Source: Octopus vulgaris (taxonomy: Eukaryota). From it: DNA of 64,000 nt. Location of the stretch: positions 72,292,001-72,356,000 of the forward strand of contig OX597815.1 in assembly GCA_951406725.2 (NCBI GenBank). Reading direction: 5' to 3'. The position numbers were made by a program, and so were the translations under genes. The notes under the pieces were generated by a model, which made no database searches, was not told where the DNA came from, and worked only from the letters and a program-made list of their open reading frames with translations. Below are positions 6,116-59,820 of the stretch, piece after piece (the stretch's first letter is position 1; every line of letters begins with the position of its first letter).

Positions 6116-6174
<59 letters not shown>

Positions 6175-6206
6175 TTTATTTTAAGCAGCAGAAAATTCAA
6201 CAAAAT

Positions 6207-6240
6207 CTGTTACTAGTTTCTGTTGCCGTTCATCAGACAG
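6207..6240 (-). ncRNA. Minimal type I hammerhead ribozyme motif
   Basis: Minus strand: CUGU-CUGAUGA-ACGGCAACA-GAAA-CUAG-UA-ACAG. Stem I CUGU/ACAG, canonical core, palindromic stem III ACUAGU, GUA site. Stem II is weak or mutated. Confidence 0.7.
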
Positions 6241-6245
6241 TTTTC

Positions 6246-6706
6246 TAGAATGGAACATATATATTAATTCAATCTATACTACAAACGCTATTTAAAGAAA
6301 TGGACTTGTTTGATATCAATTTCGAGCGATAAACAAAAGGTCAAAATATATGTATATATATATAAAAACTTATAAAATTATAAAATCGAGGAAAAACCGA
6401 GGAAAAAACTATTGCCGTTAATAAGACAGTATTAATGCATGAAATTAAACCTGCTATAAATACTGCAGTATTTATAGCAGGTTTAATTTCTATGCATTAA
6501 TTGTATGTCTTCATTAACGGCAATGGTTTTTCTCGGTTTTTCCTCGATTTTATAATTTATAAGTTTTTATATATATATACATATATTTTTGACCTTTTGT
6601 TTATCGCTCGAAATTGACCGTTTTTCAAAGGCCAATCAAACAAGTCCATTTCTTTAAATGTAGCGTTTGTAAAGTATAGATTGAATTATATATATGTTCC
6701 ATTCTA
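6246..6706. repeat. ~460-bp spacerless palindrome (foldback)
   Basis: Centre tactgcagta (6461-6470). Arms match out to tagaatggaacatat / atatgttccattcta, with scattered indels. Confidence 0.95.
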
Positions 6707-6780
6707 TAACTTCTGATAAAATAAAGCATATTACTCTACCACTGGTATTTGAGTACTATACATTTATGTGTTTACTCCGG

Positions 6781-17606: not shown

Positions 17607-17654
17607 TAAAAACTGGTTATCCGTCGTGCAATTTAATGTAAAACGAACTCGGCA

Positions 17655-17738
<84 letters not shown>

Positions 17739-17832
17739 TCCAGTTCGTTTTAAAATTAAATATATATATATATATATATATTCATCCAGTTCGTTTTAAA
17801 CATTAAATTGCACGACGGATAACCAGTTTTTA
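17607..17832. repeat. Inverted repeat with (TA)n loop
   Basis: aaaaactggttatccgtcgtgcaatttaatg...atgaata versus tattcat...cattaaattgcacgacggataaccagttttt. Confidence 0.9.
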
Positions 17833-27336: not shown

Positions 27337-27877
27337 AATTCAAAAACATATGTAGTAAATAAACATACGAATATATACTAAATACACAGACGAACAGAAA
27401 ACACAGGTCACCAATTCCTCTTCAGTAATCGGCCAGAGGGTCAAACGGCAATTTCGGCCATTATCGATTATTATTGCTTCTACTCTGGAGGCACCGGCAA
27501 GAAACTTGCTGGGAATGGGACCAAAACATAACAACACGAGACAGGCTCCAGACAAGACCGTTAGCCATTTTTTTTGCTCTATATGTATTATTTTCATTTT
27601 AATTGTTGTTTTCGTGTGGCCCTAAGTCTTTATTCTGTTTATTGTTTTGTCCTTCGTCCGTTTACTAACGGTCTCGTCTCGAGCCTGTCTCGTGTTGTTA
27701 TGTTTTAGTCCCTTTCCCAGCAAGTTTCTTGCCGGTGCCTCCAGAGTGGAAGCAATAATATCGATAATGGCCGAAATTGCGGTTTGATCCTCAGGCCGAT
27801 TACTGAGGAGGACTTGATGACCTTCTGTGTATTTAGTATATGTTCGTATGTTTATTTACTAGACGTGTTTTTGAATT
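27337..27877. repeat. Inverted repeat: ~220-bp arms, 100-bp spacer, flanked by microsatellites
   Basis: 27337-27564 is the diverged reverse complement of 27665-27877 (e.g. ctctggaggcaccggcaagaaacttgctggga / tcccagcaagtttcttgccggtgcctccagag). Confidence 0.95.
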
Positions 27878-27923: not shown

Positions 27924-28133
27924 ATATATATATATATACAGGTATGTCATATTTTCCGTTTGTCTTTTTATTTAATCCTGAAAATATTATTTATGTTACG
28001 CAAGCACTCATTCATTTGCTATCCATATATATATATATATATATATATACATGCACATACACACATGCACACACCAGTCAAGTGATGTGATCTGCGTGCA
28101 TACAAACACACACACATACACACACATATGTAT

Positions 28134-28297
28134 ACGACGGGCTTCTTTCAGTTTCCGTCTACCAAGTCCACTCACAAGGCTTTAGTCGGCCCGAGGCAAT
28201 AATAGAAGACACTTGCCCAAGGGGCCACGCAGTGGGACTGAACTCTGAACCATGTAGTTGGGAAGCAAACTTCTTACCACACAGCCACGTCTGCGCC
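28134..28297 (-). mobile_element. SINE family A, 5' half
   Basis: Near-consensus family A head. Confidence 0.9.
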
Positions 28298-28539
28298 TAC
28301 CTATTAATAAAAATTATTTTAAAATCTATATACAAAATTGTTTATTCGGACGACGAATGCGAGTGTTAGTTTCCTTATCATTGCAACAGATTAATCCATT
28401 CAACAACGCCATTATCTGATCGCAAGACCCGAGGTTTGTAATAACTAAAAGGTTGATCGGCAAGATTGCAATGAAGGGCCACACAAATAACCTCAAATAA
28501 AAGAAAAAAATACAATTTATTTCAGAATCTATATACAAA

Positions 28540-28931
28540 GGCGCAGGCATAGCTGTGTGGTAAGAAGCTTGCTTTCCAACCTCATGGTTTCGGGTTCAGT
28601 CCAACTGCGTGGCACCTTGGGCAAGTGTTTTCTACTATGACCTCAAGCCAATCAAAGCCTTGTGAGTGGATTAGGCAGACGGAAACTGAAAGAATCTATC
28701 GTATGTGTGTGTGTGTGTTTGTTGTGTTTGTATTTGTTCCCTCATCACCGCTTGACAACCGGAATTGGTGTGTTTACGTCCCCGTAACTTAGCGGTTCGG
28801 CAAAACCGGTAGAATAAGTACAAGACATAAAAAATATAAGCCCTTGGGTCGATCTATTCGACTAAGACCCTTCAAGGCAGTGCTCCAGCACGGCCACAGT
28901 CGAATGACTGAAACAAAAGAGTAAAAGAATA
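28540..28931 (+). mobile_element. SINE family A, full length
   Basis: Family A head, short internal (TG)n, body and tail. Confidence 0.92.
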
Positions 28932-31780: not shown

Positions 31781-32119
31781 TGTTTCCTTATGTTATATTT
31801 GTGGCTGAATGAATTCAGAGAATAATACATATCTATTTAAGCCTACTATAAGGGAGTAGCAGAGGGAAATAGTAGGGATCAAGATATAGGAGTGGTGAGA
31901 TAGTTATTTTTTTGTACTTTATTGTAGACTGTAAGCTGCATAAAATCTTAGAAATAAACATAAAAATAAATAATTCTCACAAATCCTATATCTTGACCCC
32001 CCCCTATTTCCCTCTGTTACTCTCTAAATTATCGTAGGCTTAAGCAGATATTCATTATTCATTCTGAATTCATTTTATCACAAACATGAATTCATTCTGC
32101 CACATAACACAAGGAAACA
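31781..32119. repeat. Inverted repeat (arms 31781-31891 and 31984-32119) heading a hammerhead-bearing element
   Basis: tgtttcctt...agagggaaatag...tcaagatatagga versus tcctatatcttga...ctatttccctct...aaggaaaca. Confidence 0.85.
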
Positions 32120-32194
32120 TTGTAATTATTTTGGTTTCTAGTACTGACATATATTTGCTATAAATGCTTTATGTTGGAAATCTATATGATCATC

Positions 32195-32281
32195 TGCGTC
32201 TGAGGAGAGCGGTTCCTTTCAAATTGATGTAATGTTTTCCTTCATCGATTAAATGAAGCCGCTTGAAACGGCTGTAATGCA
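32195..32281 (+). ncRNA. Type I hammerhead ribozyme motif with extended stem II
   Basis: UGCGU-CUGAGGA-GAGCGG...CCGCUU-GAAA-CGGCUG-UA-AUGCA. Core intact and stems I-III present. Predicted cleavage after 32276. Confidence 0.78.
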
Positions 32282-32515
32282 TTGATACCTGGACATCTTT
32301 GTTACTTATTTATGTGTGCGTGTGTGTGTGTGTGTGTGTTTGTGATAGACTGCTGAGCACTGATGATTTGTTTATAGTGATCAAAAATTTGTGTTCACAT
32401 AAGCTCACTCCTTCCATCAACTCGACATTACCTGTACAGGTGTACAAGTGTGCCACACGTAAGATGTCGCAATTGTGAATGCAAGACCTTAACCACTTAG
32501 CCAAGTTCCTTGTAC

Positions 32516-39973: not shown

Positions 39974-40239
39974 CACACACTATAATTAAGATTCCGATGA
40001 ATAAGGAACTTAAATTGAGGCACCTTGCTAGGTCGGCACACCCAAACAATATTAATTGAACATTGAATATCAAGACTCAGTGCAGGGGTGTTTGTAACTG
40101 ATATTCCTGTCGTGTGTGCAGACAACGCAATCCAGCTAAGTGAAGATATCTGCTCTTGGTAATTCAGACATGTACTTTTTATAAAGGTACTTTCTATAGT
40201 ATTTCCGAAGTGCAGATTCCAAGTCAGCTGAATAAAATA

Positions 40240-40500
40240 TAAATGAGCAACAAAGATGTACAGTTGTCAATTCATAACGGCTGTTTCAAGCGACTCCTGC
40301 CACAGATATGACAAAAGAAACAATGTAAATATTTTTGTTCCATTATTGTTGTGAATATGTTAAAGAAATGGTTGTATTCTTCAAGTTTGAAGTCAATGCG
40401 TTTTTTTTTCAAATGAGGTAATGTTTTCATTAATCAATTAAAGGAGTCGCTTGAAATAGCCGTAATGAATTGACACTTGTATATCTTTGTTACTCATTTA
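40240..40500. repeat. Inverted repeat with 59-bp arms, same family as the 32.1-32.3 kb hammerhead element
   Basis: 40240-40298 is the reverse complement of 40442-40500. 'gcttgaaatagccgtaatgaattgac' aligns to 'gcttgaaacggctgtaatgcattgat' at 32261. Confidence 0.9.
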
Positions 40501-40539
40501 AATATATATATGTATATATATATATGTATATATATATGT

Positions 40540-40787: not shown

Positions 40788-42825
<2,038 letters not shown>

Positions 42826-42913
42826 AATTCCAGGGTAGCAAAAGCAATTTAGAAAATGTCTTTGCTACCAGTGGTCTAGCGAAGAGAAAAAAACACTAGT
42901 CAATAGACTATTC

Positions 42914-43334
42914 ATATAAAATACAGTGTACATTTAAACACATAAGAGATGGCCATAACAGGACATCTGACTCGCTAGAAGGAGTAGTTAAACTCCAAAC
43001 CACTATTAGGGGTAATTCGAAAGGGAATGAAAAATAAAAAATATTTACTCTCTATTTCCTGTACCATGGTTTCAAGCAATCTTCAGCAAATAAAATAATT
43101 TACTAGGCGAAGCTTGGCTTTCCTGCTGATGTGAACTTCGCCTATTAAATAATTTTATTTGCTGAAAATTGCTTGAAACCATGGTATAGGAAATAGAGGT
43201 TAAATGTTTATATTTTTCATTCCCTTTCGAAATTACCCCTAATAGTGGTTTGGTGTTTAACTACTCTTTCTAGCGAGTCAGATGTCCTGTTATGGCCATC
43301 TCTTTAGTGTTTATATGAGCATTATATTTATATA
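42914..43334. repeat. ~420-bp foldback with ~20-nt loop
   Basis: gagatggccataacaggacatctgactcgctagaa / ttctagcgagtcagatgtcctgttatggccatctc and onward. The arms meet near 43112-43135. Confidence 0.95.
43119..43193 (+). ncRNA. Type I hammerhead ribozyme motif (A9 variant) spanning the loop and right arm of the foldback
   Basis: UUUCCUG-CUGAUGU-GAAC...GCUU-GAAA-CCAUGG-UA-UAGGAAA. 7-bp stem I and palindromic stem III ACCAUGGU. The left-arm copy has the perfect stem I partner CAGGAAA. Confidence 0.72.
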
Positions 43335-43648
43335 TATATATAAAGAAGGTAGTCAGGATTTGGCAATATATTATTTATCTATATCATTATATATTATAAT
43401 AGGATATTAATTATATAATATAGTGTGTATGTGCACGCGCTTGCGTATGTGTGTAAAAGGAAGACAAATGAGATTTAAAGTTTGCTACAGCTGCTTCGGT
43501 AGCATTGTTTGATGCATTCATAGATTACATCATAGCATAAATCTAGCGACTTTAGATAAAACATGTATTAACAGGAAAAATAAACCTTGACGATGACCTA
43601 TCCAACAACCAGCATGATGAACAAGCATTTGTTCATCATGTTGATTGC

Positions 43649-43708
<60 letters not shown>

Positions 43709-44202: not shown

Positions 44203-45125
44203 AGGGCTGGTAAAGATTAATTTGATTTCAATAATTAACTTTTGAGAAACTAGTGCTTAATTAATAGTTAATTTCGATTAAAACATAAAAATGACACGTT
44301 TATATTTCAGTTAAAACTCAGTTAAAAACAAGAAATAGCATATGGCTATGTTTAAAATTTCCTGTGATTTTTCGACATTTAATAAACAATGTTTTTGTAC
44401 CTGCGGCTTGAAATCCATGCAATATGCTCAACTGCAGCCTATGAGCCAAACACGGAATATGAGGAGCAAAACCAGTTTGATTAACAGCTGAAACTAAATT
44501 TCGTGAATAGTCTGTTACTAGAACCTGAATCTTCTTTGTTACATCCCAGTCTTTTACAAATTGTTTATATAACTCAGAAACAATGTTAGAATAGTGACAT
44601 TCAACAACATGCACACATTCAAGAATAACACTTATTAAATTCCAGTCATCAGCAATCCAATGGCCGGTGATTCCGCATTAACTTCCATTACCTAGGGATG
44701 TCCAAAAATCAGATGTTAGTGCAATTGCCATTGAATTTTTTCACTGCTTCTTTAACATTTTCTAACATTTTATCAATAAGTACACCGGCTAGGTAGTTTA
44801 TATTCGGTATTTTGAAGTGTTGTACGCAATATTTGCTGAAGACCATATTGGTCTACCACTATTAGCTATCTGGTCTGCAAGTGATATTTTAATGTCACGT
44901 TGTACGGTAGCACTCACCGAATGATCAGACCGACGATAAAACTGACTCAAAGTAGTCTGCTTGGAGGTAGATGCCACCCCCGTAGTAGACTGACTAAATG
45001 AAGCTAACTTTGCGAGGTGAGGTTTCGAATAATGTAGCAAGTGCTTGTTTTGAAGGAGGTAAGTGATGTGTTAGATCCATGGTATGTGAACGATTTGTTG
45101 CAATGGATGCAATATGTGTTATCAG
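44202..45125 (-). mobile_element. hAT transposon relic (BED finger plus Ac-like transposase)
   Basis: tagggctgg terminus. 'CIHCNKSFTYHGSNTSL' (BED), 'AIALTSDFWTS', 'VTDYSRNL' and 'HIPCLAHRLQL' motifs, with frameshifts and deletions. Confidence 0.88.
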
Positions 45126-47760
45126 GAATTTTGATATTACCGTCAGCCAACAATTTAAATCTTCCTTTCCAACACCTCTCACTTTTTGAAATTTTGTTTA
45201 CCTAGGGAGTTCAGTACCTTTTCTGCTTAGGCATTATTTCTGAATCTTCAGTTAGTTTACGTTTTCTGTTACTGCTCCTTTCAGAATTAATCGCTTTCGG
45301 TGATGGCACATCGAATATGTCCTGAAACACTTCCATTGGAATTTCCTTCCCTTCTTCTTTACGTCTCATTTATGCTCCCGTCATTGGCCTTTTATTAAAT
45401 ACATCATGTTTTCAATTCTTTTAGTCACTACTCCATCCTGCCAACTCTCTTTACCGTTCTTGTATATTTCGAAATGGACTTTGTCTCCGTTTAGTTTAAT
45501 TTTTTTGTAGTTTCTCTATACGTTTTTTTCCTTTGGCAACAGTTTGTCGAAGATCGATTTAATCTTTCGAGCTCTGCAGTGACTTGCCTGAATTGGTATT
45601 CACATTAGGCGTTAGCCTGTACACTTTTAAGAATTTAGTTAGCGCTTCGTCATTTCCTAACTCGTTCCTTGCTGTTTTTAGCGCTCGCTTGAAAATAGTT
45701 TCAAATCGTTTTGCATGCCCATTTGACGTCGGGTGGTAGGGCAGGGTAAACATGTACTTGATTGCATGCATTTTGCAGAATTTCTTGAACTTGTATCCAG
45801 TAAATTGTGCTCCATTGTCCGATACTATGGTGTCCGGAACACCGTATCGAGCAAAAATTTCAAGTAGGAACTTTATTGTAGCCTTCGTGGTAGGTTGACT
45901 GCACCTACATACTTCCAGCCACTTGGTAAAGCTACCAACAATGATCAAATAGTATGCGCCTTTCACTAGTCCAGCGTAGTCTATATGTACCCTGGACCAC
46001 GAACTATCCGTCTCAGGCCCAAGATTGATATTTCACCGGTAGTGCCTTGGCTGCCAGCGCACAACATCCACATGATCTTACCAAATTTTCAATGTCCCGG
46101 TCCATTATCGGCCAATACATGTAACTCCTCATCAAAACGTTCATTCTTGATGAAATGCATGTAATATCTATTTGTGTAGTGCAGTTGGTACTACCACACT
46201 TTGTGCGTACATTAATACATCGTCGCAGAGTGAAAAATGGGTCGCATTCGTGTTTCTCTTGTTTGTTTTTCAAGGTTTCCTTCATTTTTATGATATATCT
46301 GTCCTCCGCTGATTTACTTTTATGTTCAGGCAACTCCTGAATGACATATAACGTTTTTTAATTTCCTTTTCTGATTGTAATGCGGTCATCACCGTATTTT
46401 CCAGCGGTTCCGCATTATTCGGAATTAGCCTAGATAAACAATCCGCAACGGCTAATTTTCTTAGAAGGAATGTACTCCATCTTAAAGTTGTAATTCAACA
46501 ATATTGTACCCCAGCGTTGTAATTTGTTAGCTGTATGGGTACGAATTCCTTTCTTCGATCCGAAAATTGATAGTAATTGTCGGTGTTCCGTCTGAAGCCG
46601 AAAAGTTCTACCGTGAAGAAATGTGAGAAATTTCTTCACAGCAAAAATTATCACTAGAGGTTTCTCTATCTGACCGTAGTTTTTCCCTGCTACAATCAGA
46701 GTATGTGAGGCATGAACCACCGCCTTCATATCACCGTCTTTATATTTGTGTAGCAAAAAATGCTCCTATGCTGTATTCAGAAGTGTCAGAAGCTACAACA
46801 ATCTCCGCTGCAGGATCGATATGACCCAGCGACAAATCCGAAATTAATATTTTTTTTAGTATCCAGAAACGCCATTTGACAGTTATTTGACCAATTCCAT
46901 TTGGCGTCTTTCTTTAGCAAATTATTAAGTGGAGCTCTCAATTCATACATGTTTGGTATGTAATTTTGATAATAGTTCGCTCAGCCAAGAAAAGCTCGTA
47001 AATTCGCTATGTTAGTTGGGGGATGCATATTTTTAATTGCGTCTGCCCTCGACGGGTCAAATCTTCTTCCATTTTTTATCTATAATATTTAATTTTAGAC
47101 AAAAAGAATTCACATTTCTCCTCACTGAGTGTGAAACCGTAATCTCTTATTTTTTGAAAAATACACTTCACATGTTCAGTATGCTGATCCCGAGATTCAC
47201 TTTTAATTAATACATCATCGAGGTATGGAATTGCAAATTGACAGTCTGCCGACATCGCATCCATAACCTGTTGAAATATTGCAGGTGCGACCTTCAGACC
47301 AAATGGCAATCTATTATATTTGTATAGTGCTCTGTGCGTATTCACTGTTAGAAGCTTCGAGCACTCCTCGTCTACTTCAATTTGTAAATTGACATCAGAC
47401 AGATCTAGTTTCGAAAATATTTTGCTATCATTTAATTTTGCAAAAATATCCCCCGGAGTAGGCAGTGCATAGTGGTACATTTTTAGACAGTCATTCAAAC
47501 CAGTAGAAAAATCGGCATACGCTCTGATTTTGTTATTTTTTAAATACACACAGTAGGTGCTGCCCACTTAGAATAATCTAATTTTTGATTAATTCCCATC
47601 TTCTCCAGTCTGTCTAATTCTTCCTCTACCTGCTTTATCGCAACAAATGGTACCTTTCTACTAGGTTTGAATACATGTATGACGTTTTTCATTTGAAAAC
47701 AGGCCTCAGTCTTAGAACAGAGACCTAATTTGTCCGACAGTACTTCAGGAAACCAGTTTT
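45125..47760 (-). mobile_element. Ty3/gypsy LTR retrotransposon pol relic (RT-RNaseH-integrase), PPT and start of 3' LTR
   Basis: 'RLPFGLKVAPAIFQ..YLDD' (RT), 'YGQIEK...QRWGTILLNYNF' (RNaseH), 'YGVPDTIVSDNGAQF...PYHPTSNG' (IN). Minus strand aaaaagtgagagg|TGTT with the junction at 45175/45174. Confidence 0.93.
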
Positions 47761-49533: not shown

Positions 49534-49871
49534 AATCTATCTGTCTATCTACACACACAAAGTAATGTTTGTCGCACTTTAACATAGTGTTCTGTACGAA
49601 CCAATACTACTACCATTTTTAACCCCAAGAAGACGTCTCTTCCAGCTGGTTACCGATGCAAACCCAAAGAAGACGCCTCCTCCAACCGGTTATCGATGCA
49701 ATCGATCGCATCGATAACCAGCTGGAGGAGACGTTCTCTTCGAGTGAAAAATGGCAGGAACGTCGGTTCGCACGAGACAGCCATGTTGAAGTGGCGAAAA
49801 ACATTACTTCTCAGTATGGTTACTACTTTCATCTCTTCTGATCTCTTATAGAGATTTTCTAATTAGCTACT

Positions 49872-57374: not shown

Positions 57375-59388
57375 TAGATATGTTTCTTTATTACAAAGTA
57401 GAGCTTTTCTTTATGGGGAGAAAAGAAGAAAAAAAAAGTGGAGTAGGTTTTCGATCAAAAGGGATCGTAAAAGGGAAAGAAAAGTAAAAGAAAAGGAACG
57501 AAGAGAAAAAAAGAAGAAAAAACGATCAATAGGGATCGTGTATCAGAAAAATGTCATGATGTAAAGTGTAAAGGGGGGAAGCAGATGAGGTTTATCCGTG
57601 GGAAGAAAAGCCTACGGAAAAGACCACGGTAACCTCGGTCATTATTGTTACATGTTACCACATTTGTTTGCAAGTAGGTAACCCTCTGTTTTAAATTTCC
57701 GGGTTCATAGGATTATGCTCAAGGTGGCTTCGTCATTCATACATGCCATCCTTGCTACATTCACCCATCTTTTTTTAAAACATTCACTAGACAAAACTTG
57801 CCTCTCTACTCTCACTTTCCTCTTCAAGTGATACTTGAAGAAGTTGATGAGAGATTGACCAGAGAGGAAAGTTTTTGTCTCCAATCCTTTCAGACGCGTC
57901 CACCAGATACATTCTTTCGCCATAGCCACAAGAATGATGAAAATAGCTCTTCCTTCTCGTTAGAAAGAAGGAGGCGTGACAATATTGACTCGGCTGATAA
58001 ACCGACTCGTGCAAAACGGTTTCGTCGCTCTGACCGCATCTCGGGCAGGTCGGCCCCGTATTTCTCGAGCCGTGTCTGTAGAGCTTATCCCGAACGGGTG
58101 GCGCTTCTCGGTAGCACTGCCGGGCCAGGGATCTCTGGAAGTTTTCCATGGGCCCTGGCCCGAAAGTCGTCCTGAACAGGCGGGTCAGGTATTCCTCGTC
58201 GACGTCCAGGTTCGCCCCGAGCTCGTCGTCGTACCTCCCCTCCACTAATCCCCCATTGAATGCTTTGGTTGTGTTGAAGTCACTCAAGGTCGACCCGGGA
58301 CGGCATAGTTGCTTGAGAGCAACGCGATACTTGCGGTGCCATTCGCCCTTTCTCGGCCTCTTTTTGATCCACGACTGCAGTTCAGTCATGGAGATGAGTT
58401 GCGGGAAAGTGTGCCTCACAAACGGCGACCACACCTGTTCACCGTCGTCTACGTAGAACCTGAGATGTTGCAGTCTCAGCGCGTGTCTGCGCATCATCAA
58501 CCACGGCATGTCCAGTCCTCCTTTTAACGGGTGTTGACAGCAAATGGATCGCCTGACCATCGGGACGCATCCTTTCCACAAGAAGCGTGGAAGTTTGGTG
58601 ATGGTAGGGTCGGGACAAGACACGGCGGTCAGGCAGTAGTAGATGACGAACGCGATGTAGATGTTCGCCACCTCCGCCCGACCTTTTAGGGACAGTTTCC
58701 TCTCGGCCCATTGCCGGGCGAGAGTGACCACCCTACTCGTTATCTCGTTCCAGTTCTTCTCCATTTGGAGGTCCGGACCAAACCAGACCCCGAGCAACTC
58801 GACCGGACCGTCGGTCCAGCGTCCCACGACGGAGGCACTGGTGGACGTCATGGGCTTGCTTCTCCACGTGCCGAACCGCAAGCCCCCTGACTTTTCCCGG
58901 TTGATTTTCGCTCCTGCCACCGCTTCGTAGTCTTTCAGTGTCTCGCAGACCAGCTCGATGTGCTCGTGGTTAGATACTATGACGGTGACGTCGTCCGCGT
59001 ATGCTGACACGCTTGTCCCGCATCCTAATTCTCGCGGGATGCCCCTCAGTGTTGCCAGCTTCCGCAATAATGGCTCGAGAGTCAATACGTAGAGAAGCGA
59101 CGAGGAGGGGCATCCCTGACAGACCGAACGTGCAATGTCGAAAGGTCTCGATAGATGTCCATTTACGCGAATTACCGAACGGATACCTCTGTACAAAGCG
59201 GCTATCCAGTCGCGGAAGACGGGACCGAAACCAGCCGCTCTGAGGACAGCCTCCAAGTATCGATGGTCTACCCTATCGAAAGTTTTCGATTGATCCAAAT
59301 TGATCAGGGCCCCACCCATGCCAGGTTCCTTAACTACCCTGTCTATGATGTAGCGCATCAGATGGAGGTTGTCATGAATGCTCCGGCC
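57375..59388 (-). mobile_element. 5'-truncated Tx1/L1-clade LINE (RT plus C-terminal Zn motif), relatively young
   Basis: About 1.6 kb of open frame with 'GRSIHDN', 'NLDQSKTFDRVDH', 'QGCPSS', 'YADDVT' and 'CPRCGQSDETVLH'. 3' UTR with AATAAA (57387-57392). GATA repeats at both ends. Confidence 0.93.
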
Positions 59389-59462
<74 letters not shown>

Positions 59463-59569
59463 CTGGAGCAAGCAAAGAAACAGATTGGCAGACAGGTAGA
59501 CAAACAGACTGACTGATAGCTAACTTATTCGTAGCCCGCTGGCTTTTCGCAACATCACTGGCTGCTTGG

Positions 59570-59820
59570 GCTCTTGCTTCAGCCATTGGACTGCAGTAAT
59601 GCTGAGGCACCGTTCTGAAGGATTTAGTCAAACAAATCGATCGCAGTAGTACTTATTTTATTTTTAAAGTCTGCTACTTATTTTATCGGTTTCTTTTGCC
59701 GAACCACTCACAGATTATTGGCCGACCGGGGACTACGATAGAAGACACTTATCCAAGATGCCGTGCCGTAGGACTGAAGCCAAAACCATGTGATTGAAAA
59801 GTTAGCTCCTTAACCCTACA
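59570..59820 (-). mobile_element. SINE family A, internally deleted
   Basis: ttagtcaaacaaatcga...ttttgccgaacc joined to gaagacacttatccaagatgcc. Confidence 0.7.

Follow-up and report, generated by a model that had tools for sequence, protein, structure and literature searches.

We found that the foldback at 42914-43334 of the window (the whole stretch of 64,000 nucleotides of octopus DNA analysed here) is real. We favour, with fair confidence, the explanation that it is a head-to-head pair of 5'-truncated copies of a repeat, likely the end (pLTR) of a Penelope-like element (PLE), and that one twin-primed insertion with ordinary truncation produced it. The assignment to PLEs would rest on architecture, because no RT or GIY-YIG sequence turned up within the foldback or next to it (33 ORFs; 16 frames scanned, of which 10 overlap the foldback), as expected of a truncated copy. 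Mirror pairs of this kind are already known, and as a single locus this is an ordinary insertion, which is probably dead.

Structure of the foldback

The two arms (42919-43112 and 43136-43329) are 194 nt long each, 86% complementary and separated by a 23-nt gap; the whole mirror repeat, as delimited in a first-pass annotation of this DNA, measures 421 bases. The foldback has a minimum free energy of -281.6 kcal/mol (z = -34.65), a value that none of 100 shuffles reached. Aligned over 43133-43322, the arms show 18 mismatches in 189 positions and two 1-nt indels, indicating that the foldback is neither a fresh copy nor a fold-back artefact. The loop (43113-43135) is composed of 6 nt, the 7-nt 5' strand of stem I of a hammerhead-like motif (43119-43125), the core CUGAUGU of this motif (43126-43132) and 3 nt of stem II (Table 1). 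The annotation had rightly placed the stem I strand and the core in the loop, which is 23 nt long, but the core is defective. It had also let the inverted arm start at the base of stem II, and this is where we find the end of the arm (element position 43134-43136).

A further claim was that the arms complement each other's mutations. The sequence words are as described (CAGGAAA and AAGC in the left arm, UAGGAAA and GAAC in the right arm), although the left AAGC is probably a junction composite whose first A (T43115) comes from the direct copy. However, the distribution is lopsided rather than complementary: of the nine arm-differing sites with listed variants, seven carry the listed base of the family in the left arm and two in the right arm (binomial p = 0.18).

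Table 1. Positions of the foldback parts and of the hammerhead-like motif in the window
Feature	Position	Strand	Basis or remark
Decayed type I hammerhead-like motif, stem I 43119-43125/43187-43193	43119..43193	+	Descriptor and constrained fold
Motif core	43126-43132	+	CUGAUGU, U at position 9
Motif lower helix II	43133-43137/43170-43174	+	
Motif upper helix II	43143-43150/43157-43164	+	
Motif GAAA	43175-43178	+	
Motif helix III, self-complementary 8-nt palindrome	43178-43185	+	
Motif predicted cleavage site	after 43186 (43186/43187)	+	Predicted from layout
Inverted arm: 5'-truncated copy lacking the stem I 5' strand and the 5' core	42909..43114	-	5' end at element position 43134-43136
Direct arm: 5'-truncated copy, first 23 nt forming the hairpin loop	43113..43335	+	Arm alignment and contig pieces entering in register
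(TA)6 run, 3' end of direct arm	43330..43341	+	Sequence
Candidate target-site duplication ATATAAA, weak	43338..43344, second copy 42821-42827	+	AT-only 7-mer
Junction microhomology: CT 43113-43114 is compatible with both arms, and as many as 4 nt are if the template was right-arm-like	43111..43114	.	Length inferred
3' extension ('tail') of inverted arm, family sequence without counterpart in the right arm	42821..42908	-	Contig coverage

The hammerhead-like motif

Stem I of the motif forms 7 of 7 pairs, and helix II forms 10 of 13 pairs in the window copy and 12 of 13 with the listed family variants. The motif ends ~140 nt before the end of the (TA)n run. A relaxed hammerhead descriptor gave two matches in the window, compared with a mean of 0.05 over 40 block-shuffled windows, and 0 matches on 20,000 shuffles of the local 115 nt. 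On the other hand, an Rfam search of 42790-43640 returned no hammerhead among 19 matches at E<=10, and the Rfam search over the window returned only microsatellite and hairpin noise among the best 150 of 266 matches. The conserved hammerhead core has A at position 9. The window copy has U at this position (43132), so that its CUGANGA...GAAA...UH core is not intact and the copy can be called decayed. The core numbering follows PMC4209133.

An intact core, whose absence from the family consensus would have counted against the annotation, was found on one X1 contig (joint 43103>43239), where it reads CUGACGA and is followed by G; position 43132 is not among the best 40 of 145 variant rows. Seven common variants are listed inside the motif. 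Two of them lie in loops and five in helix positions, and all five improve pairing; this count is partly circular, as the full upper helix II hairpin was recognised after the variants had been seen, while the constrained fold of the window copy had already given the inner 4 pairs. A hammerhead-type fold that is kept in the family is supported by these sequences. The window copy is predicted to be unable to cleave because of its defective core and a helix III that would need a partner copy. A second CUGAAGA, located 6 nt before a GAAA in the left arm, was rejected as a motif: it leaves no room for helix II, and in 3 of 4 runs it is disrupted by the family variant listed for 43164.

The hairpin and the hammerhead had been annotated as mutually exclusive folds. 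The exclusion itself is seen in the model, with a stem I pair probability of 0.000 at 4 of 4 transcript lengths when the left arm is present (<=0.19 without it), but there is no switch between the two, since forcing the hammerhead fold costs 80.5 kcal/mol relative to the hairpin. Any read-through transcript is predicted to be a duplex of ~200 bp.

The repeat family, the junction and the tail

We aligned public contigs from 4 runs under three organism codes to 42790-43640 at 80% likeness. Both arms belong to the family recovered in this way, and 1369-2277 contig records aligned per run, indicating that the repeat is high-copy. In 4 of 4 runs, summed contig depth drops by a factor of 3.1-3.9 where the ribozyme ends on its 3' side, against steps of 1.1-2.5 further 3', which is a lead only, as contig depth cannot rank the parts of the element. 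A scan of metagenomes by sequence pattern gave 0 matches, and two further metagenome pattern matches were rejected as chance, with agreement over only 13-28 nt.

Among the 32 contig pieces listed, twelve begin to match at 43111-43117, in register with the direct arm, and run on along the right arm, with 1-211 unlike letters upstream. The loop can therefore be identified as the 5' end of the direct copy itself. Six of these pieces enter at exactly 43113, and X3 piece 20 enters at 43111; the direction of the minus-strand entering pieces was deduced from piece 13 and its joint. Compared with the right arm, X3 piece 20 (depth 262) shows three mismatches in 129 nt and no gaps, in a stretch where the arms differ from each other by nine substitutions and two indels, and depth arithmetic gives it the right-arm base at 43145. 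At least five left-arm bases in the same stretch are the family's common ones. The two arms therefore likely had different templates, a reading that depends on one contig and on how its coordinates are read. Given a template resembling X3 piece 20, the letters shared at the junction would reach up to 4 nt.

The element extends further to the left than 42914, to ~42845 and in one contig to 42821. This tail of the inverted arm continues for ~65-90 nt beyond the TA run where the right arm stops, with an uncertain outer limit (42821 to ~42845). Family contigs cover 42848-42905 in 4 of 4 runs, X2 piece 9 matches 42821-42958, and loose contig ends before 42909 resemble the tail stretch. The minus strand of 42815-42925 folds with z = -3.36. 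At the other end, X1 piece 8 (43275-43411, 0 differences) links the 3' end of the direct arm to the flank. A target-site duplication was sought at the ends of the foldback, and the only candidate, the AT-only 7-mer ATATAAA, is not convincing.

Breakpoints relative to the ribozyme

Contig skips from left to right on this palindromic reference were read, by inference, as head-to-head joints of other copies. The sample holds 10-11 events from the best 15 of 63 and 12 of 27 rows, with short sides and an 80% likeness cut, and is blind to joints upstream of 43113. Three rows on 'opposite strands' (likely palindrome mapping effects) and five left-to-left skips were dropped from the 15, the rows 42943/42947>43135 were merged, and five left-to-right rows were added from the second table. 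The direct arms of these other joints start at ~43135 (the base of stem II), 43167, 43203, 43214, 43217, 43220, 43225, 43239, 43243 and 43255. Inside 43119-43193 we found 5 of 20 joint ends (5 of 22 with a possible duplicate), against 39% expected by length (p = 0.25); the remaining ends of the ten joints comprise 14 downstream of the ribozyme and one upstream. Some rows speak for a link with the ribozyme, as two of the joint ends are <=6 nt from the predicted cut site, one direct arm starts at ~43135 and three skips share the position described below. Neither breakpoint of the foldback itself is at 43186/43187. Joint ends are not enriched in the ribozyme in this small and weak sample, which gives no support to a steering of the inversion joint by the ribozyme. 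Our full-text literature search, which covered the main text of mostly open-access papers, found no paper that maps PLE inversion breakpoints against the hammerhead.

Three different left-arm skips end at 43085 (element position 43163), where the upper hairpin of helix II has its edge. These skips either represent deletions linked to the structure or result from re-alignment on a conserved island.

Origin of the foldback

PLE insertions, in the accessible parts of their literature, contain an inverted 5'-truncated copy in head-to-head order with a tail at one end, and inverted pLTRs and head-to-head palindromic junctions are known in PLEs (PMC3846280; PMC8557442; PMC8969392). The foldback carries two such PLE marks, namely an inverted 5'-truncated head-to-head copy and a hammerhead near the 3' end (pLTR). 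It is similar to the inverted pLTRs described in portions of two papers on EN+ PLEs (Arkhipova 2013, PMC3846280; Craig 2021, PMC8557442) in its head-to-head inverted copies, short junction, one-end extension and AT-rich/(TA)n end. It differs from them in having no ORF between or beside the arms, a one-sided 3' extension of ~65-90 nt compared with a published PLE tail of 30-40 bp, and no clear target-site duplication. Likewise, the motif shares its type I topology and palindromic helix III with PLE hammerheads as partly described by Cervera and de la Pena 2014 (PMC4209133) and a review (PMC6765202). In the same parts of these sources, a self-complementary helix III implies dimer cleavage in PLE type I hammerheads, and Schistosoma has paired hammerhead motifs on opposite strands 100-700 bp apart. 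The long two-part helix II, the 42 nt between the core halves, the 7-bp stem I, the U at core position 9 and the missing Rfam match set our motif apart from the PLE hammerheads of these accounts.

We propose that both target strands would have primed reverse transcription within one insertion, and that the two cDNAs would have annealed at a 2-4-nt microhomology. Two related but non-identical RNA templates may have been used, two RT start sites would account for the one-sided tail, and the breakpoints would be ordinary truncation points, not products of the ribozyme fold. According to the available part of an in vitro study (PMC11167929), a PLE protein, Poseidon PAc of Anolis, cuts and extends the target on both strands, the tail is determined by two internal RT start sites, and ribozyme mutants insert normally, the ribozyme being dispensable in that assay. 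Two-strand priming from two RT start sites predicts a head-to-head pair that is tailed on one side and joined at a microhomology, and would explain the inverted pair and the tail seen here; head-to-head products are not modelled in that part of the study, and the mechanism suggested for the foldback is read from its sequence. Twin priming with a microhomology-joined inversion is also known for L1 (PMC11702581, in part). The foldback resembles it in a second RT event at the other DNA end and in the microhomology at the inversion junction, but L1 inverts adjacent RNA segments, whereas the foldback holds the same 3' segment twice.

A clearly less probable alternative keeps the same type of insertion and regards the 5' end of the direct arm as a preferred RNA start (a transcription or exon start) just upstream of the hammerhead, with neither fold nor cut being causal. 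This agrees with the direct arm beginning 13-15 nt upstream of the core, with one other inverted arm reaching ~43105, and with the end of the D. virilis Penelope intron mapping to the 5' end of helix I (PMC4209133, in part). The 12 pieces entering at 43111-43117 would also look alike under a preferred start, but seven contigs from three runs have a T at 43112 in common, so some copies seem to pass 43113, and the 14 of 20 listed joint ends downstream of the ribozyme count against it as well. The first-pass annotation had instead proposed that RT template switching took place at the ribozyme structure, which we spell out as a single RT stalling or switching there and its cDNA folding back to copy itself. 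This does not hold up well: we regard the whole model as improbable, and a template switch at the ribozyme fold as unlikely. The 23-nt spacer is short and has a self-complementary 4-mer at both its ends, self-priming has been proposed for PLE palindromes in part of PMC3846280, and 5 of 10 other joints have their two ends no more than 27 nt apart (permutation p = 0.08), as expected of snap-back. The arms also have in common 6-8 bases that are not the family's commonest, which fits one template too. However, the loop is in the sense of the right arm, so a single snap-back would make the loop-less left arm the copy of the right one, which cannot be longer at its 3' end; yet the left arm is longer, with a family tail that the right arm lacks. 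This objection holds unless the right tail was lost later. An RT that is held up by a helix should stop at the 3' edge, whereas the ends here are on the 5' side. The lack of enrichment of joint ends in the ribozyme speaks against the annotated model too, as do the foldbacks at 6172-6720 and 31781-32119, which centre 220-260 nt upstream of their hammerhead-like motifs.

It is very improbable that the repeat is retrozyme-, SINE- or MITE-like instead of a PLE end, with a foldback made by DNA-level repair or by two separate insertions. The coding part was indeed not found locally among the 33 ORFs and 16 scanned frames, and type I hammerheads also occur in animal retrozymes, which are themselves proposed as derived from PLE ends in the available part of the same work (bioRxiv 10.64898/2026.07.22.740005). 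Against this idea, the locus has no tandem monomer array, no direct repeat of the unit as head-to-tail tandem monomers (the mark of a non-LTR retrozyme) was found in the window, and a one-sided tail with head-to-head order is a PLE mark. A MITE or foldback DNA transposon would be a fixed palindromic unit copied whole, but the centre varies among the copies, the other apparent joints of our small sample being centred differently. An assembly or amplification fold-back artefact is hardly credible. The centre is bridged by no contig piece among the 32 listed, although such a hole proves nothing. Against an artefact, the arms differ at 18 of 189 positions and by two indels, and both outer ends are matched by X1 pieces without a single difference, with the reservation that X1 may be the source sample.

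The formation of PLE inverted heads and the role of the hammerhead are treated as open questions in the literature (PMC3846280, PMC8557442, PMC11167929). The locus is valuable as a test case, since its family apparently comprises very numerous copies and also many foldbacks. Given a whole assembly, these should suffice to distinguish twin priming from snap-back and to place the 5' ends relative to the ribozyme. A broader proposition, which we hold to be doubtful, is that PLE inverted heads are twin-primed on two RNA templates and that the direct copy starts preferentially just upstream of the hammerhead. If this were true, the 5' end of the transposing RNA could be mapped from the junctions in a genome, and the PLE replication cycle, which is unsolved, could be read out on a genome scale.

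Other features of the window

The window is animal-like, repeat-rich DNA with many microsatellites and decayed LTR and LINE pieces. At 43480-43550 on the minus strand, a second decayed hammerhead-like motif, which belongs to another repeat family, adjoins the foldback; loose ends of contigs suggest an intact core in other copies of it. A 52-nt hairpin follows at 43603-43654. Another hammerhead-like motif, at 32192-32284 on the plus strand, has an intact CUGAGGA core, a 6-bp helix II with a long loop and a near-palindromic helix III. A foldback (31781-32119) lies just upstream of this motif, and its relatives form the foldback at 40237-40503, one end of which is in helix II. The foldback at 6172-6720 contains a minimal hammerhead-like motif on the minus strand, with its core at 6236, 220-240 nt from the centre. 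After CUGAU, the ribozyme body seems to be missing from its inverted arm, and a sequence of 18 nt resembling the core is found near the centre (~6411-6430).

Inverted repeat pairs are also present at 27337-27877, 28100-28733 and 49560-49809. The arms of the first of these have CUGAGGAG/CUGAAGAG-like words and no clear GAAA half. The pairs at 41818-42245, 42628-42825 and 17607-17832 are centred on a microsatellite run. Three decayed or partial coding regions lie on the minus strand. A broken LTR-retrotransposon pol at 45559-47567 has RT, RNase H and integrase matches, and 57787-59652 is an RT frame, which we take to be of the LINE type. Finally, 44318-45400 is probably a decayed transposase, with only a sub-threshold BED zinc-finger match (E = 0.046), and is presumably hAT-like.
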